From Candidatus Woesearchaeota archaeon (lineage in GTDB: Archaea; Nanobdellota; Nanobdellia; Woesearchaeales; JAGWAF01): a stretch of 32,000 bases of DNA. Where the stretch lies: positions 7,242-39,241 of the forward strand of contig JAGWAF010000003.1 of the NCBI GenBank assembly GCA_018302085.1, in the 5' to 3' direction. Positions 2,479 through 29,198 of the stretch are shown here, one piece after another. The translations under genes were made by a program, and so were the position numbers. The notes under the pieces were generated by a model, which was not told where the DNA came from, made no database searches, and was given only the letters and a program-made list of their open reading frames with translations. How positions within the stretch are numbered: the stretch's first letter is position 1; each line of letters begins with the position of its first letter.

Positions 2479-3570
2479 TTAATGAAATGTAATGAAGTGC
2501 AGCTTATCAATGTGCTTTCTTGCTTTTTCCAGATTTTTTGTGAACGTGTCCATAAAGTGTTCCATCTTTTCGCAGGCGAGACTTTTAATTTCCCCGGAGG
2601 TCATTTTTCCAGACTTGTACTCCTCATAGATCTTTTGCAACTCCTTATCGTCCTCAACAAGATGTTGTTTTAGCAAATCAAAGACCATGCATTTTTCAAC
2701 TACCGCGCCTAATTTTCGATGTTGTTCAAGAGTGTCCCTTCCCCCAGTTAGTGCACGCATAATTTTGCGCTTTACAGTGGCAATATCCTCAGGAAGCTCG
2801 ATCATGCTCTCGGGATTTGATTTCGACATCTTCAAACCACCGTCAAGGGATCGGGTATATTTATGATACAAACCTGCCAATGGCATGAAACTGTGACTGG
2901 ACTTTGTCCTGCTGATAATGTCTCTTGCCAAACGAATGTGAGGATCTTGATCAGGACCCACAGGGATGATGCCGGGCATTGATTTTTCCAACTGAGGGAA
3001 GAGCATGTCCCCTACTTGAGTTACCGCGGCCATAATCCTGCCAGGATCTGCACTTCCATACACAGACCTAAACTCATTCAAGGTAATCTTCTTAGAAAAT
3101 TCGTATGCCAACTGAATTACTTTTTTATTTTCGGATTGAAAATAAAAGGTTGTCTTCTTTGGATCTAGACCAAGGGCGATGTAAGCTGGAATGTAAAACT
3201 GTTTTGCACGCTCTCGCGCTTCTTCGAGAGTAACCCCCCTTGTTGACGCACTTTCCAGATCTGCTACAAGAATAAAAGTATGTGTTGCGCCATGCTCCTG
3301 AAAATATTTTAAGTTCTCAACGACCATCTTGCTCCCGAAATGAATCCTCTCTGAAGAAGGCATGATACCACTGAGAGCGTAGTAGGGCTTTTTGTTTTTG
3401 ATGCAATCAGCAATAATTTTGAGATCCCTGCCTGCAAACACTATATTTCTCCTCATTAATCTGTTAGGATCTGGAAATAAGGAAGGGTCGAAGGTTTCCA
3501 AACCAAAATCCTGAATGAGGGAAATGTAATCCTCAGGCAGATCTTGGCCCCATGGATCAATAATTTTCAT
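2479..3570 (-). CDS. trpS: Tryptophanyl-tRNA synthetase (archaeal/eukaryotic type)
   Basis: Class I motifs IHFGS (HIGH-like) and KMSKS. C-terminal TGGRDTLEQHRKLGAVVEKCMVF...EDDKEL...YKSGKMTSGEIK matches the archaeal TrpRS pattern. Confidence 0.8.
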   Translation of the reverse strand: MKIIDPWGQDLPEDYISLIQDFGLETFDPSLFPDPNRLMRRNIVFAGRDLKIIADCIKNKKPYYALSGIMPSSERIHFGSKMVVENLKYFQEHGATHTFILVADLESASTRGVTLEEARERAKQFYIPAYIALGLDPKKTTFYFQSENKKVIQLAYEFSKKITLNEFRSVYGSADPGRIMAAVTQVGDMLFPQLEKSMPGIIPVGPDQDPHIRLARDIISRTKSSHSFMPLAGLYHKYTRSLDGGLKMSKSNPESMIELPEDIATVKRKIMRALTGGRDTLEQHRKLGAVVEKCMVFDLLKQHLVEDDKELQKIYEEYKSGKMTSGEIKSLACEKMEHFMDTFTKNLEKARKHIDKLHFITFH

Positions 3571-6204: not shown

Positions 6205-6477
6205 GGACAGGCTAGGCCGGGAGGTTAGCACTCTCCTGTCACCCCCAACGTGCTTCAGCGGGGGTCGAAGCTTGGAAGGCGATTGCCTAAGGTGAGGGTA
6301 GTCTTGCTTTGGACAACGACGATCTGTCCTGCTTGATCGACCTTTGTGAGAACCACGTCAGGGCAGGAATGCAGCAGCGTTCATCACGATGATTGATGTT
6401 TGCAGGGTTGCGGATCCGAGGAAGAAGCGAGGGAACTTCCTTACTGTTATGCACTCCACTTTCGAGCGCGCCTGTCC
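6205..6477 (+). ncRNA. ffs: Signal recognition particle RNA (archaeal 7S RNA)
   Basis: Domain IV motif gtcagggcaggaatgcagcagc (compare GUCAGGUCCGGAAGGAAGCAGC). The 5' Alu-like region is ggccgggaggttagcactctcctgtcaccccc. 5' ggacaggc pairs with 3' gcctgtcc. TATA ttttaaat lies about 24 nt upstream. Ends are approximate. Confidence 0.8.
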
Positions 6478-7690: not shown

Positions 7691-8428
7691 ATGTTCTTCT
7701 GGAAAAAAGACACGGCGAAAGAGATTAGAGATGATCTTAAGAAAATAAGAAACAAGGTAGGGCGACTCGAGAGTTTTACGAAACAGATAGAACAAACCGG
7801 TGCCATCATTCAGAGCATCAAATCAAAGATTGACCGCGTAGAACATGAAATTCTTCAAAGAGCAACAGAAGAAAAGGCAAAGCCATGGATTGACGCGCGA
7901 TTTGATCCGCAAATTGATCAATTGGCACAGCAAGAAATTCAAGAATTAAACAAACTCAAACAAAACCTTGGCAGTTACGCTGAAGAAACTCAACAACTCA
8001 AAACTGCACAAGATTTGAATGCATTAATTGATTTGTTAGAACAAGAAGAAACTACAATCCAAACACGGGATGAACAAATCCTAAAACAAATTGAAACGTG
8101 GGAAAGGGAAACGATTAGAGAAAGACTCTCGAGGCCATCGGACGAAGCACCATCATTGCGTACGGTTGATGGCGTTCCCTGGAAAAATATTGTTACAGTA
8201 GCACGCCAGCTCGGGGGTTGGTTTAAAAGAATAAAGGGAGAACATGAAGGGAAGATCCTTTTTCCAGGAGCTGGTAGACCTACTCTCGTATCGGCCGATA
8301 TTGGCGCCACGCGTATTGCAAAACAATTCAGAGAACAGCTTGTTTATTCAATGCCAGGACATAAAATTCCAAATGCGAAAAAACTACGCGATGCACTCAC
8401 GGCTGGCGACATTTATCTTGCCGCATGA
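7691..8428 (+). CDS. Coiled-coil protein with a small C-terminal globular domain, unknown function
   Basis: About 150 aa of heptad-like Q/E/K-rich sequence. The C-terminus is ...VARQLGGWFKRIKGEHEGKILFPGAGRPTLV..., weakly HicA/YcfA-like in pattern. Confidence 0.5.
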   Translation: MFFWKKDTAKEIRDDLKKIRNKVGRLESFTKQIEQTGAIIQSIKSKIDRVEHEILQRATEEKAKPWIDARFDPQIDQLAQQEIQELNKLKQNLGSYAEETQQLKTAQDLNALIDLLEQEETTIQTRDEQILKQIETWERETIRERLSRPSDEAPSLRTVDGVPWKNIVTVARQLGGWFKRIKGEHEGKILFPGAGRPTLVSADIGATRIAKQFREQLVYSMPGHKIPNAKKLRDALTAGDIYLAA

Positions 8429-8778: not shown

Positions 8779-9330
8779 TCATTTTGTGAAAATGGACTTT
8801 CTATTCTGATTAAAAGTTTTATTGGTCAATGATACTAAAGAGCCCTCTATAAAGGTTATCGTCAAAACAATTGCAGCTAAATAAAATAAGACATCATTTG
8901 GCTCAAAAAATACTGCGTGGACTGCAAAGACAGAAATCAAAACAAAAGAAGCTTTACCAGAATACATATGATAATTTGTAAAAAGATGATACTTAACATA
9001 CCCGATGCTCATCTTCAGAAAAAATAAGATAATAACGACGATGATTATGGAAAGCATTTTACCAACAAAATCTGGAAACAATATCCAAAATAAAAAAATC
9101 AAAGACAAGTCTAGCAAAGTATCTGCCAAGCTATCAAACCAAGAACCAAAGTCACTCTCTTGCTTCAATTTTCTTGCAAAATAACCGTCTAAACCATCTG
9201 TTAAAGCTGCTAATGACAAAACAATGCCAAAAACAATTTTTAATTTTGAAAATGCCAAAAACCAAAGAACAGGTATGCACACTAAACGAAGAAGGGTAAA
9301 GTAATTAGGAACGTTGTTTTCCCATCTCAT
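8779..9330 (-). CDS. CDP-alcohol phosphatidyltransferase family protein
   Basis: Signature [30 protein letters not shown] (DGx2ARx8Gx3Dx3D). Multi-TM. 4-nt overlap with the leuS stop. Confidence 0.8.
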
Positions 9331-12008
9331 GCTATAATGATACTCGGCTTTCCGGGCAATGCGGCTTTTGCTTTGGGCTCTTCTGTTTTTTCTGCGAGGA
9401 TGATGTGAATAGTAGCTTTATACTCTTTTGCAAAGAAGTCTTTTGCGTCCTGAAGTGTTTGAAGTTCTACATTTTGGTCTAAAATAATGGCAGGCATTTT
9501 CGAGGGATCTTTAATAAATTTCGGAATGAGCTTTGTAATTTCCTCGCCATGCTTTTTCAAATCACCCTGAAAAATTTCCTTCATGATCTCTCCTTGATTG
9601 TATGTTTTTTCAAGTGATTTTTTTAATTTTCCAATAAAAGTGTATTTCCATGTTGGGGCGACAAACAAGGTTATTTCTTTTGGCTCCCTAATTTTTGCCA
9701 AAGTCAAAACATTATTAATATCCGCCAAGGTATTAGAAACGAGCTCGTCTGCAGCCTCCGCTTGCTCATCGATTTTTGACTCATCATATTTTGGCCAATC
9801 ATGAAGGGAAATGAAAGGTTTATGACCTAATCTCTCCCACATTTCTTCTGCGAGATGGGAGGCAAACGGCGAAAGGAGAAGACAGAGTGTTTCCAAACAT
9901 GAACGATGCGTTTTCATATCCACAGGGTTCTCTCTATAACTGTTGAAATCGTTTACAAATTCCATTAATGTGCCAACTGCAAGGCTCAGCTTGAACTCTT
10001 CCATAAAATCTGTTACTTTCTTGATAGTACGATGAAGTTTTCCAAGTATTTTTTTATCTCTGTTTGTAACTTCCACTTTGTGGAATTCGGGTTGCTGTTC
10101 TACAAGATTCCAAACTCTGTTGAGGAATTTGAAACAGCCATGCACTCCTTGATCATTCCACTCCAACTCCTTTTCAGGCAATGCTGTGAAAAGAATGAAA
10201 AGTTTTGCAGTATCAGAACCGTACTTATTGATAATTTCAACAGGGTCAACAACATTGCCAATAGATTTTGACATCTTGGCACCATCTTTAATGACCATAC
10301 CCTGACAAAGGAGACGCTGGAAGGGCTCGTCGAAATCAATCAGTTTTAAATCTCTCAATGCTTTTGTGAAAAATCGTGAATACAACAAGTGAAGAATAGC
10401 GTGCTCAATGCCCCCTATATATTGATCGACAGGAAGCCAGTACCTTACCGCATTTTTGTCGAAGGGGATCTTATTTTCTTTAGGGGAACAATAACGTAGG
10501 AAATACCAGCTTGAATCAATAAAGGTGTCCATCGTATCCGTTTCTCGTCTTGCAGATTTCTTACACTTCGGACATTTTACGGCGTGGAAGGCTTTACTTT
10601 TTTCCAAAGGATTACCTTCGCCCGTAAATTTTACGTCTTTTGGCAAGAGAACTGGCAAGTCTTTTTCAGGAACAGGAAGCATACCACACTGATCACAGTA
10701 AAGTATGGGAATAGGAGTGCCCCAATATCTTTGTCGTGAAATAAGCCAATCACGCAATTTGTAATTTGTCTGCTTGACCCCCTCATTATTTTCAACAAGC
10801 CAATCAATGATCTTTGGGAGTGCCTGTCTATTTGGTAACCCTGAAAATTGCTTTGAATCGAATAAAATCCCATCACCGGTGTATGGTTTTTCTAACTTTT
10901 TCACTTCTTTTTCTTTTCCTGGAGGGGCAAGGACTGCTTTCAGAGGAATTTTATATTTTTTTGCAAAAGCGAAATCACGCTCATCATGCGCATTCGCCAT
11001 CACAATACCCGTACCATAATCAACTAAAGCGAAATTTGCCGTCCAGACAGGGATTTTTTCATTCGTTGCAGGGTTAATGACATAGATTCCGAGAAAAACA
11101 CCGTGCTTTTCTTTATGTTCAGCCGAGCGTTCTATTTCCGTTTCTTTTTTGACGTGTTCAAGAAATTCCTTTACCGTCTTTTCTTGTTTTGAACCCCTCA
11201 CAAGTTCTGCTACTAAGGGGTGTTCTGGAGCAATGACAATAAAAGTTGTACTGAAAATAGTATCAGGCCTTGTGGTGTACGCTGGAAGAATCGTATCCGC
11301 GCCACCTACCTTGAAAAAAATTTCTACACCCTCTGATTTTCCAATCCAATGTTCCTGCATGAGCTTCACTCTTTCTGGCCAGTGCTCAAGCTTTTTCAGA
11401 TCATTGAGAAGTTCTTCAGCATATGCTGTGATTTTCAAATACCACTGCGCAAGTTGTGTCTTTGCCACCTCATTCTTGCAGCGCCAACATTTGCCTTCTT
11501 CTACCTGCTCATTCGCGAGCACAGTTTTACAAGAATTACACCAATTCACCCACGATTCTTTTTTATACGCTAAACCCTTTTTAAGAAATTGAAGGAACAA
11601 CCACTGATTCCATTTGTAATATTCGGAATCGCACGTATTGACTTGACGTTCCCAATCGTAACTCCAACCCATCATCAACTGCTGCTCTTTAATCCCCTTG
11701 ATGTTATTGTACGTCCAGTCTGCAGGATTCACACCCTTCTTGATGGCCGCATTTTCAGCAGGCAAACCAAAAGCGTCATAACCCATGGGGTACAGAACAT
11801 TAAAACCGTGCATACGCTTATATCTCGTATACGCGTCTCCTATAGAATAATTCCTTACGTGACCCATATGGATATAGCCACTGGGGTACGGAAACATTTC
11901 TAAACAATAGAACTTAGGCTTTTTTGAGTTCTCAGAAACTCTAAAGATCTTTGCCTCATTCCAACGCCTTTGCCACTTGTCCTGCACTTGTTTAAAATCG
12001 ATAGGCAT
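9327..12008 (-). CDS. leuS: Leucyl-tRNA synthetase, bacterial-type sequence
   Basis: [51 protein letters not shown]. The N-terminal 250 aa align closely by eye with the E. coli-type LeuRS pattern, not the archaeal AFPYLSGxLHxGH type. Confidence 0.9.
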
Positions 12009-13153: not shown

Positions 13154-13918
13154 CTAGGGTTTAAGCTTATCCCACAACTGATCGAAGACTTGTTCAAAAG
13201 CTTCAGCGAAAACCTCGTCATCTAGTATAAATGCTCTGGGTGCATTGCGAGTGATGTACATAATAAAGAATTTTTTACCCATGACACCCCACTGTGCCTC
13301 GTTTCTCAAATCGGCGTAACGAACTTCCGCATTTTGCCTTTTTCTTTTCTCCCCATGGGCACGATCGGCGAATGGTAGAATTAACTTATACCCTATCTTA
13401 CGTTTAAGCCTAACTTTATGAAATTCATCATAGAATGGAATTAATGGCTGGTACGCCTCTGGCCTTGCACCGTATATTTTTAAAAACTTTCCTTTGTCTA
13501 AAGAATGCAAATCATCCCTCAATTCGTGCCACATAGATTTTACGCCATTCAACCCTTCATAATAACGATATTTGGAAAAAGGCTCTTCGAGAGGCTTTAC
13601 TTTTTTAAGACTCTCAACAAGATCATTAATCTGCTTCCTTTCCTGCTCAAGCAATTTAACTTTTTCTACGAAAAGGTCATTCAGAATTTCAGGAGAAGAA
13701 GCGACGAAGATTCTTATATTGTTTTGCAATCGATAACTTACAAGACCTTTTTTTATGAGAGTATCAAGGATAGGATAGATATTGGAACTCGCGATCTTCG
13801 CCTTTTTACAAATCTCCCCTGTTTTCGCCTCCTTCAACTCAAGCAAAGCCATATAGACACGAGTTTCTGGGACTGTCAGACCAATTTTCTGCAGGATTAA
13901 TTCATACGCTTTATTCAT
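13154..13918 (-). CDS. TrmB-family transcriptional regulator (paralogue 1)
   Basis: N-terminal wHTH LTVPETRVYMALLELKEAKTGEICKKAKIASSNIYPILDTLIKKGLVSY. About 250 aa, with the coiled linker typical of the TrmB family. Confidence 0.75.
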   Translation of the reverse strand: MNKAYELILQKIGLTVPETRVYMALLELKEAKTGEICKKAKIASSNIYPILDTLIKKGLVSYRLQNNIRIFVASSPEILNDLFVEKVKLLEQERKQINDLVESLKKVKPLEEPFSKYRYYEGLNGVKSMWHELRDDLHSLDKGKFLKIYGARPEAYQPLIPFYDEFHKVRLKRKIGYKLILPFADRAHGEKRKRQNAEVRYADLRNEAQWGVMGKKFFIMYITRNAPRAFILDDEVFAEAFEQVFDQLWDKLKP

Positions 13919-13955
13919 ACTCCTATACTAGATAGTAGGAGATATTTAAATGTTA
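13904..13955 (-). promoter_or_regulatory. Leaderless promoter plus palindromic candidate operator of TrmB paralogue 1 (copy 1 of a direct repeat)
   Basis: TATA atatttaaat (13942-13951) lies about 28 nt from the ATG at 13918. Palindrome CTCCTA-N10-TAGGAG (13920-13941) sits between the TATA and the start. Near-identical sequence at 14897-14945. Confidence 0.6.
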
Positions 13956-13975
13956 TCCATTTTTATCTAAAGTCG

Positions 13976-14686
13976 TTATTGTTTTGCCGTTTTCCATAAC
14001 AATTCAAAATGTTTTTTAAAACTGTCTGCTAATTGTTTTGATTTTATTCTTATCGCAATCATTTCCGGTTCCCAAATCAAATTTAATAGTATATCATTGT
14101 AACACAAATTAATTGTGACACTCTTAAATTCTTTGGGCAGGTATTTTATTTGATAAAATTTAGATGGAGGTGGAATAGTTTTTTCAGTGAAAATAACCCT
14201 ATGCTTAATTTGATGTTTTGTTTGCTCCCTGAGATAATACTCGGCAAATTCAGGTAAAAACTTGCGTAGCTGTCCTGAGATGCTATATCCCAACACTTCC
14301 TCTTTTTTAACAAGGATATCTTTGAGCACAGACTTCATTCCTTGTTTTCCTTTAAAAACCTCTACAGTTACATTTTCAGGAATTTTCGGTCTAATCTCTT
14401 TTAACTCAGGAATCATCTTGGTTACAACTTCTTCCTGCTCTTTTAGGTAATTCAAAAGACTTTCAGGATCTGTAGCGCGAAAGAACTGCTTATTCTCTTT
14501 TAATAGAAATGCAACAATGCCCATCGCTTTTAGCTTCTCTAAACTATCGTAAATGTTTGTTCTATGCAATCCTGAATTTTTGCTTATCTCCGCAACAGTA
14601 GCTTCTCCCAATTTCAACAATGTTAAATATATCTTTGCTTCGCTGTCAGAGAGTCCAATACCCCTAAGCTTTTCAATATCAACCAT
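13976..14686 (-). CDS. TrmB-family transcriptional regulator (paralogue 2)
   Basis: N-terminal wHTH LSDSEAKIYLTLLKLGEATVAEISKNSGLHRTNIYDSLEKLKAMGIVAF. Own TATA (rc acttaaatag, 14707-14716) about 26 nt upstream of the ATG. Confidence 0.75.
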   Translation of the reverse strand: MVDIEKLRGIGLSDSEAKIYLTLLKLGEATVAEISKNSGLHRTNIYDSLEKLKAMGIVAFLLKENKQFFRATDPESLLNYLKEQEEVVTKMIPELKEIRPKIPENVTVEVFKGKQGMKSVLKDILVKKEEVLGYSISGQLRKFLPEFAEYYLREQTKHQIKHRVIFTEKTIPPPSKFYQIKYLPKEFKSVTINLCYNDILLNLIWEPEMIAIRIKSKQLADSFKKHFELLWKTAKQ

Positions 14687-14896
14687 AAGCGTTATGGCCT
14701 GTTTATCTATTTAAGTATTTCGTCTTTTTTTAGACATGCACCTATAGGCAATCACAGAGGCTTCCTATTTGTCTTAAAATAGACAACTGATTCTTAAAAG
14801 TACTGCACTTTCAAAGAAGATAAGTGATTCATTATGGCGGTGAACAAAATTGATACCATCGGTTTTGAAGATGCCGAGAATTCGTATGAATGATTT

Positions 14897-14945
14897 ATAC
14901 GCTTTACTACTCCTATACTAGATAGTAGGAGATATTTAAATGTTA
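14897..14945 (+). promoter_or_regulatory. Copy 2 of the TrmB1 promoter/operator repeat, positioned to drive the 14978-16722 operon
   Basis: Identical to copy 1 over 'atacgcttta' and the final 35 nt 'tcctatactagatagtaggagatatttaaatgtta'. The short segment between them differs (ttcatac in copy 1, ctac in copy 2), which removes the ATG. TATA at 14932-14941 lies about 35-45 nt upstream of the ATGs at 14978/14987. GGTGA at 14973-14977. Confidence 0.5.
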
Positions 14946-14977
14946 CCTGCCGAATATAGAATAAGCATGAAAGGTGA

Positions 14978-15583
14978 ATGATCTTTATGACTTTAGAACT
15001 CCAACATACAAAAATGCCATACAGTATCGACGTACCAAATGTAGGTACTATTCTTTATAGTGCTGCTTCTATTGATTATCTTTCTCATCCTGAAGCTGTA
15101 GCTTATGCTCGAAAGCAAGGTGGAAATTTAGCTAGTCTTGCACAGTTAGGTTTTTTCAAAGCTGCTAGATTTCAACCAACTTTTATCCTTATCGATAGGG
15201 CGCGTGATTGGCCTCAACCTGGTGCTGATTGGCGTCATTCTGGTACATTGGTCTCATATGGTGATGGCGTAATGCGTCCTTGGGAGCCTGATCAAGATAC
15301 TCTTGAAAGGATTTCACAAGCAGGTTATGAAGCGAGTAGTAAAGGAGATGAGCTTATTTATGATTTACGAAGTGAAACAAAAGATCCTGTTGTTCTTGCA
15401 ATAAGAAAAGCATGGATTGAAGGGATAAAAAGACAAGCACTATTACCTACACAAAATTGGAACGAATTAAGCCTGCTTCCGGCGGAAAGTTCTGCTTTTG
15501 AAACTTGTGATATCACACAAGCATTAATGCAACAAGGAGCACATTATCTTGCTGACGATCTCAGAAGTGAAAGAAAGGGATAG
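14978..15583 (+). CDS. Unrecognised accessory-island ORF with a C-type-lectin/FGE-like helix signature; possibly the body of a variable protein, split from its C-terminus by a -1 frame change
   Basis: 201-aa ORF. YLSHPEAVAYARKQGGNLASLAQLGFFKAAR resembles the sW.eA.aY..W.G.rLPTeaEwe.AAR / W.EA...C...GG.LASI motif of CLec/FGE folds. The alternative start at ATG 14987 has better SD spacing. Ends in AAAGGGA-TAG. Confidence 0.5.
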   Translation: MIFMTLELQHTKMPYSIDVPNVGTILYSAASIDYLSHPEAVAYARKQGGNLASLAQLGFFKAARFQPTFILIDRARDWPQPGADWRHSGTLVSYGDGVMRPWEPDQDTLERISQAGYEASSKGDELIYDLRSETKDPVVLAIRKAWIEGIKRQALLPTQNWNELSLLPAESSAFETCDITQALMQQGAHYLADDLRSERKG

Positions 15584-15606
15584 TTTATTGTTTAATCGCA
15601 AAGGAC

Positions 15607-15789
15607 TTGACAGAAGCTGGTCTAGAGGCTGGAGACGGAAAAGTACTCATCCGTCCTTCCCGTCTTGGCTACGACCGCACCTACTCCGACTACGTTGGTG
15701 TTGTTGCTTGCGGCCAGTTCGGTCGCAAGGGGTGGGCTCGCGCGGTAGCCGAGGCGCCGAAAAGTCCCAGTGAAAAACAAGGTGAGTGA
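15607..15789 (+). CDS. Tyr/Asp/Ser/Gly-rich variable-repeat-like C-terminal module (frame -1 relative to 14978-15583; frame open from 15568)
   Basis: Only a TTG start. 19 of 20 codons in 15667-15726 end in C or T (9 consecutive NNC, then 5 NNT). Locally very GC-rich. Scaffold VLIRPS...GWARAV. GTGA start/stop overlap with the next ORF. Confidence 0.45.
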   Translation: MTEAGLEAGDGKVLIRPSRLGYDRTYSDYVGVVACGQFGRKGWARAVAEAPKSPSEKQGE

Positions 15790-16190
15790 AAATGGTTAAT
15801 GTACAAAGACATACAAGATATGGTATTACCATGGTCGATGCACACTCGCTTGCTCATCGGTGCAAATATGGTGATTTGTGGAGTGCTGATGAAGCCATTG
15901 AGTGGATTGCACAGACACCCTGCACAGGAAGGGTTGAAGAATGCGACCCGACGTATAGCCCGATTATCACATGCACGACAGGTATTTATTATGCTGAATC
16001 TGGAGAGATCATTGTTTCATACGTTGACGATAAAGATGGTGCCCTCGCATCACTCGTTGGAAGTACCGTAATTAAAGATCGTGACGATATCCGCGCAGCT
16101 TTGAGAGAAGCTCGAGAAAGAACAACCAGCCCGCCCTGGAGAAGCATATGGAACAGTTCTGACACCAGAAACACTATTTCCGACATATGA
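15786..16190 (+). CDS. Hypothetical protein (accessory island)
   Basis: 134-aa ORF (GTG 15786 or ATG 15792), translationally coupled to the upstream ORF. No recognised domain. The last 25 aa or so look non-protein-like, while the +1 frame is open and protein-like from 16105. Confidence 0.45.
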   Translation: MKMVNVQRHTRYGITMVDAHSLAHRCKYGDLWSADEAIEWIAQTPCTGRVEECDPTYSPIITCTTGIYYAESGEIIVSYVDDKDGALASLVGSTVIKDRDDIRAALREARERTTSPPWRSIWNSSDTRNTISDI

Positions 16191-16197
16191 TATTAAA

Positions 16198-16722
16198 TTG
16201 TTAAATGAAGGGTTAAAGTCGTTAAAGTCGTCGTTGTCCGATGAAAATAAAGCAAGGGTACATGCTGTTGCGATTTATATTAAATATGATATAGTGGACC
16301 AAGACACCGACTCAATAGGGTATATCATTGACGCGAGGATTTCTGGCCCTTTTGGTGATGTGTTACTCGGAACAGGCAGTGCGGGCACGCGCAACACGCA
16401 AGACGCTACGAAAGGTTTGGAAGAAAAGGTTCACACCTCTCACTTCGTGCTTGAAGGGGCATGGCGAACATTAGTACTAGGAGGGGTGGCAAAATTAGAC
16501 TCAATGCTACCAGAAACATTGACGAAAGAGCTAGAGGACGCACGCAGAGAAGCAAGAGACGCACTTTCAGATTACATTTCAGTTGAAAAAGATGAAGAAA
16601 GAAGGGGTTTAGCAGAAGAGCTTAGAGAATCGTTGGGATCTAATAAAATGAACGGGCAGGGAGGATTAGGAGAAGCGATTAAACTTTTCACTTTGTTTGG
16701 AAGAACACTTGAAAAAGAATGA
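16198..16722 (+). CDS. Hypothetical protein (accessory island); may be the continuation of 15786-16190 after a +1 frame change
   Basis: Only a TTG start. The same frame is open back to 16105 (EKLEKEQPARPGEAYGTVLTPETLFPTYDIKLLNEG...). Helical, acidic C-terminal half. No recognised domain. Confidence 0.45.
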   Translation: MLNEGLKSLKSSLSDENKARVHAVAIYIKYDIVDQDTDSIGYIIDARISGPFGDVLLGTGSAGTRNTQDATKGLEEKVHTSHFVLEGAWRTLVLGGVAKLDSMLPETLTKELEDARREARDALSDYISVEKDEERRGLAEELRESLGSNKMNGQGGLGEAIKLFTLFGRTLEKE

Positions 16723-16737
16723 ATCACGATAGAACTG

Positions 16738-16919
16738 TAGAGAACTTTGCAAAATGTCAAAAAATGGGGTGTTTTAGGCAAAGTTCTCTAGAGAAGTTTG
16801 AGTATTTCTTATTATAGTGAAGGCACCAAATATTCGAACATGAATAGTGCATCTTCACTATTACGAAAAGCATTGTAATGTTCGATAATTTAATGCTTTG
16901 AGTATATTTCAAACTTCTC
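16738..16919. repeat. Nested hairpin element: a 13-bp perfect hairpin followed by a roughly 130-nt stem enclosing two hairpins with complementary loops
   Basis: H1: 16738-16750 / 16778-16790 (tagagaactttgc/gcaaagttctcta). P1: 16791-16801 / 16909-16919 (same arms as at 2023-2059). P2: 16815-16826 / 16847-16860. P3: 16867-16874 / 16892-16899. Loop-loop complement tcgaacat (16834-16841) / atgttcga (16878-16885). Confidence 0.7.
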
Positions 16920-16954: not shown

Positions 16955-17131
16955 CCAGATAGAACACCGGACGGAATTACAGCGTGTGTCCGTACTGCGG
17001 ATATTGCGGATTTGGACTACATCTACGACAGCCACTACCCCCACTACCCTTTACTCAATACCGGCGACATCAGCTACGACTATGGCTGGGCTCGCGGAGT
17101 CATTGAGACGTCGAAGGCATCAGAGAAATAA
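16955..17131 (+). pseudogene. Start-less paralogue of the 15607-15789 module (second variable-repeat-like tract)
   Basis: Frame open from 16955 to the TAA at 17129-17131 with no ATG/GTG: PDRTPDGITACVRTADIADLDYIYDSHYPHYPLLNTGDISYDYGWARGVIETSKASEK. 20 of 24 codons in 17015-17086 end in C. The C-terminus GWARGVxExxKxSEK parallels GWARAVAEAPKSPSEK. Confidence 0.45.
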
Positions 17132-17162
17132 AAAATTAAATCTTCTTAAATTGCCCAGCGAT
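17119..17162. repeat. Displaced copy of the rpoN 3' end plus terminator (direct repeat copy 1, att-like)
   Basis: 44 nt, 41 identical to 18879-18922. On the minus strand it still encodes IAGQFKKI*. The two differences inside the coding part are synonymous third-position changes. Confidence 0.8.
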
Positions 17163-17217: not shown

Positions 17218-17329
17218 CATTTAGATATTGGTGAATTCTCCTCCTCTTATGATAACAAAGGGAACGCATAGAATCATTCTTGAACAGAGTGGCACAGTTT
17301 TATAAATGAAGAACAATAAAAGATATTGT

Positions 17330-18856
17330 ATGAATCTTACCAGAAGAGATGCCCTTAAATATGCAGGACTTTTAGCCCTATCTGGATTAGGAGTTCTTCA
17401 GGGTTGCGGCTCAAAACCATCTTCAAATCCTTCTGGATTGCATGAACTCATTGAACATTATAATCATGACGAAGCAAAAAAATCTGCGGCACTATTTCTC
17501 CTCGAAGAGGCAAAGAAAAGAGTTTCACAAGTTTTTCCGGAAGGGGCGCCAGAAGCCGAACAGGATAAACTAAAACCACTTGAAACAATAGATGCAAATC
17601 ATCCTCAGATTGTAGAGGCTTTGGTCCGAAATATAGACTTCGCATTTCAAGCAAGAATGCAATTCCCTTGGTGCTCTGAATTATCGATGGAAGATTTTAT
17701 GCGTTATGTGTTACCTTATAGACAGGGAACCATGGATCTTATACAGTTTCCTACAGCACATGTTCATTGGAGGGAAGCCTTTCTTACTGAATCAGGATGG
17801 AAAAAACTGCAGATGGTGTATGGAATCTCTACACCTTGGGAAGAGGTGAACCAAACAGTACAGACGTTAGTTGAAAGATATAACCATGCTCCAAATTCCC
17901 AAGAAAAACACCGAGTCAAACTGGATCTGGTAAGTTATGTAAACACTACCCTCTGGGTCGAAAAGGAGCTGATAGCTTACAACCCAAGCGGCGCGCAAGA
18001 AAAAACATTGGAAGCTATTCTGAAAGATGGTGGTGGAAGATGCTCTGATTTAACCCATTTATCCTTGATGCATTTACGAGCATTAGGACTACCAGTAACT
18101 ACATTTCGTATACCCGCCTGGGGAAGAGGAGACGACAATCATCAATTATTGATGATGATAGGAGAAACAAGCGAACAAAATGTAGTCTTTGATGGTATGA
18201 GGTCGAAGCCCTCACAAGACCAAGCCTATCCTTGGAAACCTGGAGGCGGAATCCCTAAAATGTACACAGAAGAATTCGGCGTATGGGATAATGCCTCCGC
18301 CTCGGTTGTAGGCCGCATAACAGAGCACCCATGGTTCATCGATTTTTATCTCGGCACAAGATCGTGCAGGGATGTAACCGCACTCTTTACCGATACTGTT
18401 ACCATAACAATACCTGAACTTGAACCCCATAAAATTACTTACCTAGGAGTCCTCAACAATTTTTGTTCAGAAGGTATTGCGTACATAGCTGTAGAAAAAA
18501 CAGACGAAAATGGAACTGCCACTTTTCATAATGTTGGTTGTAAAGGAAATATTTTATATTTTACTGAGACACACGCAGTTCTTGCAAGAGATGATTGTTC
18601 AATTGAGATTTTTCCAAACCGAGATGAACAAATGCCTTACAGCATTAAAGGATTAAAACCTGAGAGAACATATGCGCTATGTCAGTGGGGCACAGGAAGT
18701 TTTCAGGAGGTACAAAGAATAACGGGGGATGATCAGATTGAAATTAAATTAAATGTGAATAGTGTCTATGCCATTAAAGACCTCACAGAAAAAGGTTGGC
18801 AAAAATGGAGACGTCCCTTTATAACACGAAGAGATGGTGCTTTAGAAGAACACTAA
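17330..18856 (+). CDS. Tat-signal lipoprotein with a transglutaminase-like cysteine-protease core
   Basis: MNLTRRDALKYAGLLALSGLGVLQGCGS (twin-arginine motif plus lipobox). Core GGGRCSDLTHLSLMHLRALGLPV...NHQLLMM...VFDG (Cys-His-Asp pattern). Start placed at ATG 17330, 24 nt after the TATA, because the track start 17306 abuts the TATA. Confidence 0.65.
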   Translation: MNLTRRDALKYAGLLALSGLGVLQGCGSKPSSNPSGLHELIEHYNHDEAKKSAALFLLEEAKKRVSQVFPEGAPEAEQDKLKPLETIDANHPQIVEALVRNIDFAFQARMQFPWCSELSMEDFMRYVLPYRQGTMDLIQFPTAHVHWREAFLTESGWKKLQMVYGISTPWEEVNQTVQTLVERYNHAPNSQEKHRVKLDLVSYVNTTLWVEKELIAYNPSGAQEKTLEAILKDGGGRCSDLTHLSLMHLRALGLPVTTFRIPAWGRGDDNHQLLMMIGETSEQNVVFDGMRSKPSQDQAYPWKPGGGIPKMYTEEFGVWDNASASVVGRITEHPWFIDFYLGTRSCRDVTALFTDTVTITIPELEPHKITYLGVLNNFCSEGIAYIAVEKTDENGTATFHNVGCKGNILYFTETHAVLARDDCSIEIFPNRDEQMPYSIKGLKPERTYALCQWGTGSFQEVQRITGDDQIEIKLNVNSVYAIKDLTEKGWQKWRRPFITRRDGALEEH

Positions 18857-18878: not shown

Positions 18879-18922
18879 ATCAAAGAAATAAAAAATTAAA
18901 TCTTCTTAAACTGGCCAGCGAT
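18879..18922. repeat. Direct repeat copy 2: the functional rpoN 3' end plus terminator
   Basis: Covers the last 8 codons and stop of rpoN (18896-18922) and the downstream T-rich run on the minus strand. Confidence 0.8.
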
Positions 18923-19093
18923 GTCTACCAGATCAACTTGACCCAAGAACATTTGACGACAGCAGTAGCGCTCCAAGCCTAAATCATCCATGACTTTCTT
19001 GCGATCCTCACCCTTGGCCACACGTTCCTTGTATTCTTCCCAGAGATGAGCAATGGGTTTTCCGCAGCTAAAACATCTTACTGGAATTATCAT
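18896..19093 (-). CDS. rpoN: DNA-directed RNA polymerase subunit N (Rpb10 homologue)
   Basis: [14 protein letters not shown]...YCCRQM zinc-bundle motif. 65 aa. Canonical position after S9. Confidence 0.9.
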
Positions 19094-28796: not shown

Positions 28797-28880
28797 CTTT
28801 CGATAATGATGACAGGGCATATTTAAATCTTTCGATAAAATGCGAAAGATATAAAGTTTGAAAGAAAAGAAGAAAAATAG

Positions 28881-29169
28881 GGAAATGATAAGCCGCCTTT
28901 TGTCAGACTCCGTTAGGACAGTCTGTCTTCGCATTAAACTTAGCGTCACAAAGGACTTGCACGGGCCAGGGCTATCCGTTTCACCGTTTCCAAAAAACAA
29001 GCTCGGCTGGTTAGCTCAGTTTTGTTGCCAAAACCTTCGCAAGCCTCATCGCGAATCTTGGGCGTTCCGTTTCTGAGATGTTGCCATCCCTTACAGGATC
29101 CTTTACAGGTGGCCTTTTCTAGCGTGGGCGGACTTTCCTCAGCATTGAAGCCGGAGCGAAGTCATTTCC
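28881..29169 (-). ncRNA. rnpB: RNase P RNA (archaeal type A)
   Basis: Minus strand carries CR-I GAGGAAAGTCCGCCC and CR-V ACAAAAGGCGGCTTATC, with P4 complementarity (AGTCCGCC/GGCGGCTT). P1 is ggaaatga (rc of 29162-29169) pairing with tcatttcc (rc of 28881-28888). GC-rich and ORF-free. Confidence 0.85.
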
Positions 29170-29198
29170 CCATTTAGGATATAATACATGATCTGACT

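Follow-up and report, generated by a model that had tools for sequence, protein, structure and literature searches.

Apart from diversity-generating retroelements (DGRs), no dedicated protein-hypermutation system is known in prokaryotes. DGRs are particularly frequent in DPANN archaea and the candidate phyla radiation (CPR), and the reason proposed for this distribution is that surface contacts must adapt to hosts. Their abundance in DPANN archaea is well documented (PMC5006420, PMC8144416, PMC8421398). The BPP-1 cassette comprises the variable region (VR) of mtd, avd, a template repeat (TR), and brt. Among archaea, the best point of comparison is AvpA, a DGR variable protein of Nanoarchaeota with a solved structure (PDB 5ioo; Handa et al. 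2016, PMC5006420) and the sequence motifs GxxVVVYAH, HPxxxPFxG, and RFxGV (PMC5006420), and AvpA-like proteins without a DGR have been reported in Woesearchaeota genomes (PMC5006420). Remote or orphan DGR targets have also been described (Roux et al. 2021, PMC8144416). Here, a 32,000-nucleotide stretch of a Candidatus Woesearchaeota genome (assembly GCA_018302085.1, contig JAGWAF010000003.1, positions 7,242 to 39,241; hereafter the window) is examined for an unusual codon tract at the end of one of its genes. We read this tract as the VR of a DGR target gene in this DPANN lineage, most likely a frozen and decaying orphan, with a probability of roughly 0.8.

The tract was singled out by a sequence-only reading, made from the letters and the open reading frames (ORFs), that suggested a DGR variable repeat forming the C-terminal end of a C-type-lectin-like target. 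The counts behind that proposal stand on recounting. In the frame of ORF 15607-15789, 19 of the 20 codons from 15667 to 15726 end in C or T and none ends in A (GGC TAC GAC CGC ACC TAC TCC GAC TAC GTT, then GGT GTT GTT GCT TGC GGC CAG TTC GGT CGC). The upstream ORF 14978-15583 uses TAT over TAC by 7:1 and GAT over GAC by 12:2, exactly the figures given earlier, and C or T occupies 54% of its third positions, so the binomial probability of at least 19 in 20 is 7e-5. The tract had also been called GC-rich within low-GC DNA, and the composition agrees: 15649-15759 has a GC content of 66%, with a maximum of 77% in the 48-nt stretch from 15712, against 39% for the whole window, and adenine makes up 12% of 15667-15750 against 30% of the window.

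The target belongs to a small, previously unannotated protein family of DPANN archaea, collected by a profile search of 1.8 billion protein representatives. About 40 relatives (cluster representatives) were found, all of ~250 aa and all with the same C-terminal architecture, in which (V/I)RPxGLG precedes a variable stretch that is closed by AR(G/A)V. Four classes of homologues all have DGKVLIRPxxLG ahead of the tract and ARAVA behind it, with nearly no likeness in between; they vary exactly within the invariant frame that had been noticed around the tract. The contrast is sharpest in one 90% cluster, in which three unrelated tract alleles sit on an N-terminal body of 215 residues that is 98-100% identical: YDRTYSDYVGVVACGQFGRKGW in the window, P0001, and P0007, VYNVVGADDRFNSNWL in P0008 (contig L006), and YGIIFSVNVVVAGNLFYIIRL in P0009 and P0002. 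A strain comparison over the tract, suggested as a check by the sequence-only reading, gave the same picture at the DNA level, with zero substitutions between L006 and the window over 13749-15574 (1.8 kb) and all substitutions within 15594-15789. Hypervariability is confined to the gene end in these otherwise near-identical genomes, and some of the flank differences point to recombination. Contigs L005, L006, L007, and L011 end 45-160 nt past the target gene, as expected because population heterogeneity in a VR tends to break assemblies.

Several relatives retain the components that write such a tract. In L001 (protein P0004, 40% identical), a TR lies ~230 nt downstream of the target stop codon. 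Counted from the GGC at the start of the variable core through the repeat end, this TR and its VR differ at 15 of 30 adenines and at 0 of 44 other bases, with one 3-nt indel, and the translation of the TR, ...GNDNNFNNNDVNANDQFNNNRLARAI, is rich in Asn, as is typical for templates of DGRs. In P0050 (L013/L014) and P0049 (L015), the target is followed by a spacer of ~240-300 nt, a TR, and directly after it a reverse transcriptase (RT) that matches RVT_1 and bears the motifs LGNWTSQ and YVDD; all variable-core mismatches in the TR/VR pairs of L013 and L015 fall at adenines. The spacer ahead of the TR shows conservation across L001, L006, L013, and L015 (GGGGCTACACGYCCTGYCA ... GGGCTACTGAG). The proposed DGR interpretation thus finds its support in genuine TRs with adenine-only core mismatches and in the adjacent DGR-type RTs of L013-L015, and the further suggestion of a diversification mechanism outside the standard cassette type is unsupported, as the relatives use the standard cassette. 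The RT directly after the TR is as in BPP-1. Unlike BPP-1, the relatives have no Avd-like gene between target and RT, the only ORF call there being one of 46-56 aa over or just before the TR.

The window VR carries the same signature. Measured against the L001 TR, the nearest available, it has changes at 23 of the 32 positions with a TR adenine and at 4 of the 45 remaining positions (Fisher p = 1.4e-8), a bias to TR adenines that matches the adenine-specific mutagenesis predicted from the codon pattern, and it has one extra codon (a 3-nt indel). Relative to the same TR, 12 of 24 adenine positions in the L006 allele are changed and none of the 37 other positions. The VR closes with the invariant GC-rich segment GCTCGCGCGGTAGCC, which recurs unchanged in the VRs of L001 and L006 and almost unchanged in that of L004. 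In the L001 TR the corresponding sequence is GCTCGCGCAATAACC, and the fixed contrast of AAT in the TR with GGT in the VR recurs in L013 and L015. Judged by these fixed differences from the TR end, the segment is a putative initiation of mutagenic homology (IMH) site facing an IMH* in the TR. Adenine-specific TR/VR substitutions in the pairs of the family, a VR at the 3' end of a gene for a C-type-lectin (CLec) fold, and a GC-rich invariant VR end that differs from the TR end at a few fixed positions are all features shared with BPP-1; no significant hairpin after the window VR, no TR and RT in the window, and an AvpA-like fold subclass rather than the FGE (formylglycine-generating enzyme) type set the locus apart.

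The predicted fold of the target is CLec, of the AvpA-like subclass. An AlphaFold2 model from a 33-sequence alignment (predicted local distance difference test, pLDDT, 89; predicted template modeling score, pTM, 0.88) had AvpA as its top Foldseek match in the PDB (5ioo_A, E 2.6e-4, probability 1.0, template modeling score 0.63 on the target, 246 columns), followed by mincle, CD23, langerin, and other C-type lectins. Among the best 50 of 361 structural matches, none was an Mtd, TvpA, or FGE entry. In the model, the VR (residues ~233-256) falls in strands 224-235 and 241-245, and ARAV forms the final strand, 258-261. Pfam returned no family at E <= 1 for the target, FGE-sulfatase (PF03781) included, and NCBIfam and PHROGs had no match. 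The FGE/C-type-lectin fold anticipated earlier is accordingly right in its lectin half, with AvpA as the best match, and wrong in its FGE half. Like AvpA, the target is a single-domain protein of ~250 aa from a DPANN archaeon, whose short VR close to the C-terminus is followed by an IMH-encoded invariant strand and then by a short disordered tail (PMC5006420). The two differ in that identity is only 11% and that the equivalent C-terminal motif of the window family is AR(A/G)V. The AvpA-like fold was missed by sequence searches alone: phmmer and the 33-sequence family profile, run against all PDB sequences, did not reach 5ioo at E <= 10, and none of the three AvpA motifs was seen as such on a by-eye scan of the family alignment.

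The absence of an RT and a TR within 32 kb, stated in the sequence-only reading, was confirmed. An ungapped sliding scan of the window that tolerated any mismatch where the candidate has A found no TR, motif searches with 3 mismatches allowed found no conserved TR spacer, and neither a motif scan nor tblastn with two family RTs found an RT or RT fragment. A spacer-plus-TR profile run with nhmmer matched the window with its TR part only, at 15644-15750 (the VR itself, E 2.5e-4) and weakly at 17024-17099 (E 0.52). The position that holds the spacer in L006 and L001, directly after the VR, is taken in the window lineage by a gene of 339 aa in L003 and L008, which in the window is split by an 80-nt deletion (16128/16129) into ORFs 15786-16190 (134 aa) and 16198-16722 (174 aa). 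This gene has no match in Pfam, PHROGs, NCBIfam, or the PDB sequences; its GC content exceeds that of the genome, and its translation is coupled to that of the target gene.

The target gene itself is also broken. ORFs 14978-15583 and 15571-15789 are one gene, and a query with the joined product returned the contiguous 272-aa protein P0001 at 99% identity; the intact 272-aa homologues P0001 and P0007 are 99-100% identical to the joined window product. The NCBI annotation covers only the 5' half (MBS3175662.1, J4457_00300, identical in sequence to the 5' ORF). What had been taken for a separate, GC-shifted ORF at 15607-15789 is the 3' end of the upstream gene, thrown out of frame by a 7-nt deletion at 15575. 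Over 3.5 kb, the window differs from L003 only by 1 single-nucleotide polymorphism, this 7-nt deletion, and the 80-nt deletion at 16128/16129. The frameshift was established by global alignments of the window with L003 and L006 and by gapped BLAST against L007 and L008; the 7 nt are carried by L007 and L008 also, and the 80 nt by L008 also. Each of the two deleted pieces contains AAGAACTG, and 3-nt microhomology (GAA, GGG) is present at the borders of both. The deletions could be real decay or errors of the deposited metagenome-assembled genome (MAG).

The history that we propose for the locus runs as follows. In a working cassette, the RT would copy the RNA of the adjacent TR, misincorporating opposite adenines, and the resulting cDNA would replace the last ~80 nt of coding sequence ahead of the invariant end GCTCGCGCGGTAGCC, turning AAC and AAT codons into NNC and NNT codons on the predicted ligand-binding face. 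In the window lineage, the VR has lost its partners, with the 339-aa gene standing at the relatives' spacer/TR/RT site; in the current assembly, the target is frameshifted by the 7-nt deletion, and the next gene is split by the 80-nt deletion. The positions of these elements, and of other features in the window, are collected in Table 1.

Table 1. Positions of the target gene, its variable region, and neighboring features (coordinates of the window)
Feature	Position	Strand	Remarks
5' part of target gene	14978..15583	+	Body of the predicted AvpA-like C-type-lectin fold; premature TAG from frameshift
Frameshift site	15569..15583	+	7 nt (AGAACTG) absent; present in L003, L006, L007, L008
3' part of target gene	15571..15789	+	-1 frame; encodes ...GIVYCLIAKDLTEAGLEAGDGKVLIRPSRLG-VR-ARAVAEAPKSPSEKQGE and stop, from translation and alignment to intact homologues
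Variable region (VR)	15649..15750	+	Homologous to family TRs; variable core ~15670-15735
IMH-like invariant GC-rich VR end, GCTCGCGCGGTAGCC	15736..15750	+	Encodes conserved ARAV strand
Gene downstream of target	15786..16722	+	GTG start overlaps target stop; at relatives' spacer/TR site
Second, degenerate VR-like segment	16955..17131	+	Translates as ...ACVRTADIADLDYIYDSHYPHYPLLNTGDISYDYGWARGVIETSKASEK and stop; stop codon immediately upstream
Promoter/operator-like module, 38 nt	14908..14945	.	CTCCTA-N10-TAGGAG inverted repeat, then TTTAAAT; 33 nt before target ATG
Two TrmB-family regulators	13154-13918 and 13976-14686	both -	Pfam
Leucyl-tRNA synthetase	9327-12008	-	Followed by M42 peptidase in gene order
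Transglutaminase-like gene	17306-18856
Archaeal SRP (signal recognition particle) RNA	6205-6477		RNA gene search
Archaeal RNase P RNA	28880-29170	-	RNA gene search

Is the VR still being rewritten? The sequence-only reading had left a remote target and a fossil side by side as ways to account for a VR lacking TR and RT. We favor the frozen orphan and keep remote service as a rival. The window, L003, L007, and L008, which are assemblies from different samples, have one and the same consensus VR, the local TR cassette is gone, and two adjacent genes of this assembly have frame-breaking deletions; for these reasons the tract appears to be no longer diversified. That the tract arose from a DGR, that its gene belongs to the family and has the predicted fold, that a TR and RT are lacking locally, and that the gene is frameshifted are taken as shown, whereas the end of diversification is an inference. 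A number of points weigh against this reading. The window VR, whose IMH-like end is intact, could still be served by an RT and a TR located at another place in the genome, and minority variants at the read level would be compatible with identical consensus VRs in four assemblies. Both deletions might be assembly errors of the deposited MAG. No cognate TR for the window VR was found in any sequence available, and 4 non-adenine mismatches and one extra codon separate this VR from the nearest TR. Finally, recombination contributed beside retrohoming, as the flanks of L006 and the window differ at non-adenines and the downstream DNA was replaced.

The most serious alternative, which we hold to be unlikely, is that the VR is still an active remote target, rewritten in trans by an RT and TR elsewhere, with the frameshift an assembly error or a variant of a subpopulation. 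The window locus resembles remote and orphan targets in that its IMH-like end is intact and that at least 15 kb to each side hold neither a TR nor an RT, and remote targets are a recognised blind spot of DGR surveys (PMC8144416). The gene is unbroken in three other assemblies; L001 shows zero non-adenine divergence between TR and VR and has no RT within 4.4 kb downstream or 7.7 kb upstream of the locus, which suggests that an RT acts in trans or else was lost very recently; and the family member on the long contig L017 (P0054) likewise lacks a local TR and RT. A true remote target has a matching TR elsewhere in its genome, however, and none was found for the window VR in the sequences available. 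The VR is also unchanged across the four assemblies, which come from at least three other samples, and a TR of the L001 type is not its template, given the mismatches and indel already described together with flank differences, and comes from another organism. A relic fits better than a remote target because the gene is frameshifted and the VR static across assemblies. A broader version of the idea, in which orphan VRs and RT-less spacer-TR cassettes such as that of L001 form a distributed DGR with one RT serving several TRs and targets in trans, is doubtful; were it true, rewriting of the window VR would be continuing, and a -1 slip at the site of the 7-nt deletion might even rescue the broken gene. 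That the split gene is made whole by programmed -1 ribosomal frameshifting is very improbable for its own part. The junction reads GAA AGA AAG GGA TAG and does contain A-AAG-GGA, an X-XXY-YYZ heptamer right before the TAG, and a shift of -1 is what the gene would need. This heptamer arises there by accident, however, owed solely to the 7-nt deletion, the protein lies in a single frame in every related contig, and the unrelated 80-nt deletion that breaks the neighboring gene points to decay or assembly error.

Two further explanations concern the origin of the tract rather than its present state. Homologous recombination, through exchange of 3'-end cassettes among strains or paralogues and without current retrohoming, would account for the identity of L006 and the window up to 15574 followed by flank differences at non-adenines (15594, 15597, 15625-6, 15658-61), for the different DNA downstream of the target gene in the two, for a relic of another gene's 3' end at 16955-17131, and for the two paralogues on the single contig L004. 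Recombination shuffles alleles, however, and cannot create a bias to TR adenines or fixed third positions inside the tract, and the relatives' TR/VR pairs, which differ only at adenines, adjoin RTs. As the whole explanation recombination is improbable, and the best view is that it acted in addition to a DGR, not in its place. The last candidate would make the tract an island of codon bias that arose by chance, a GC-rich piece gained by horizontal transfer, or the gene of a structured RNA; it draws on the local GC peak in the low-GC window and has effectively been refuted already. Searches with Rfam and ARAGORN gave neither an Rfam nor a tRNA match at the tract, no significant hairpin was found 3' of the VR, and folding energies were no better than those of shuffles; the tract is protein-coding within a conserved family, and the adenine-site test is highly significant.

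Searches for a template outside the window were also made. A TR-specific pattern, GCTAAYGAYCAATTYAAYAAYAA, had two matches in public genome contigs, both in MAGs of Acutalibacteraceae; the one that was inspected (L009) is repeat-rich protein-coding sequence with no relation to a TR, and both were treated as chance. The same pattern had no match in metagenome contigs, and a protein-based scan of metagenome contigs gave no relatives. A query with a family RT retrieved thousands of DPANN RTs, none attributable to the locus-tag prefix J4457. Within the window, the repeat finder paired 15730-15761 with 17084-17115, and the segment around the latter (16955-17131) was considered as a TR and rejected. 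Its mismatches to the VR involve all bases and are not adenine-specific, and it is NNC-rich, not A-rich; its homology runs past the IMH-like end into the coding tail (GAG ACG TCG AAG against GAG GCG CCG AAA), which TRs lack; the conserved spacer is absent; and the fit to known family TRs is weak. Its ARGV motif resembles distant family members, and it is best read as a relic of the 3' end of another target gene.

L001 deserves separate comment. It comes from a different organism, since its ribosomal protein S9 is 48% identical to that of the window, and its TR was accordingly rejected as a trans template in the same cell, the mismatches and indel adding to the low S9 identity. Protein P0010, near-identical to the L001 protein, nevertheless bears the same J4457_ locus-tag prefix as the window gene, L001 is 99.6% identical to the P0010 contig fragment L005, and the window-type and L001-type populations co-occur in sample ERZ27254845. 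Two versions of the locus, S9 proteins of 48% identity (as deduced via L001), and two co-occurring Woesearchaeota populations suggest that the J4457_ bin is mixed. Pfam searches of the unannotated L001 ORFs returned a HATPase-like protein and others, no RT among them. At the site of the relatives' RT, the L001 TR is followed by 186 non-coding nt (7896-8081) and then by a cytidylyltransferase-like gene. A short frame within 7896-8081 that ends in ...DGGTLHCASQ and a stop is presumably similar to the C-terminal end of an enzyme that modifies guanidino groups. It seems that other sequence has replaced the RT in L001. In L004, two paralogous target genes (1-654 and 3009-3470) have two HEPN/nucleotidyltransferase pairs between them; the label 'bacterium' attached to L004 (NCBI MAG GCA_030697685.1) is probably wrong for a relative of Woesearchaeota proteins.

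Arranged together, the loci would form a decay series, from the full cassette (L013, L015) through loss of the RT (L001) and of the TR (window lineage) to frameshift of the target (window assembly). The orphan VR was revealed by its codon signature alone, and surveys anchored on RTs miss such loci; VR-like codon signatures can outlast the machinery that wrote them. The window locus represents a known kind of system and leaves the understanding of the DGR mechanism unchanged.

Onward from the TrmB pair, the gene order is target gene, unknown gene, transglutaminase-like gene, and the rpoN-S9-L13-L18e-rpoD cluster, and one tRNA-His is present in the window. A perfect 38-nt direct repeat, TACTCCTATACTAGATAGTAGGAGATATTTAAATGTTA, occurs at 13918-13955, where it abuts the start of a TrmB-family gene, and at 14908-14945; it holds a 6-bp inverted repeat with a 10-nt spacer and, from its sequence, may serve both genes as operator and promoter. 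In L001 too, the target has a TrmB gene as its neighbor, and in L013 and L015 one lies within 8 kb.

A 44-nt repeat, 93% identical between its copies at 17119-17162 and 18879-18922, brackets the transglutaminase-like gene. The second copy consists of the last 8 codons and the terminator region of rpoN (18896-19093, minus strand, PF01194), and the first is a duplicate of the rpoN end (IAGQFKKI and stop). By this arrangement, it looks as if DNA had inserted into the 3' end of rpoN and restored the gene end in doing so; no integrase was seen. The window (16740-16814) and L001 (3264-3350) share, at 89% identity, a non-coding element of ~75 nt that has a 12-bp stem (AGAGAACTTTGC ... GCAAAGTTCTCT); the proteins of the two organisms are only 40-48% identical. 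Part of this element recurs at 2012-2059 in the window, and it could be a small RNA, an element resembling a miniature inverted-repeat transposable element (MITE), or a conserved regulatory site.

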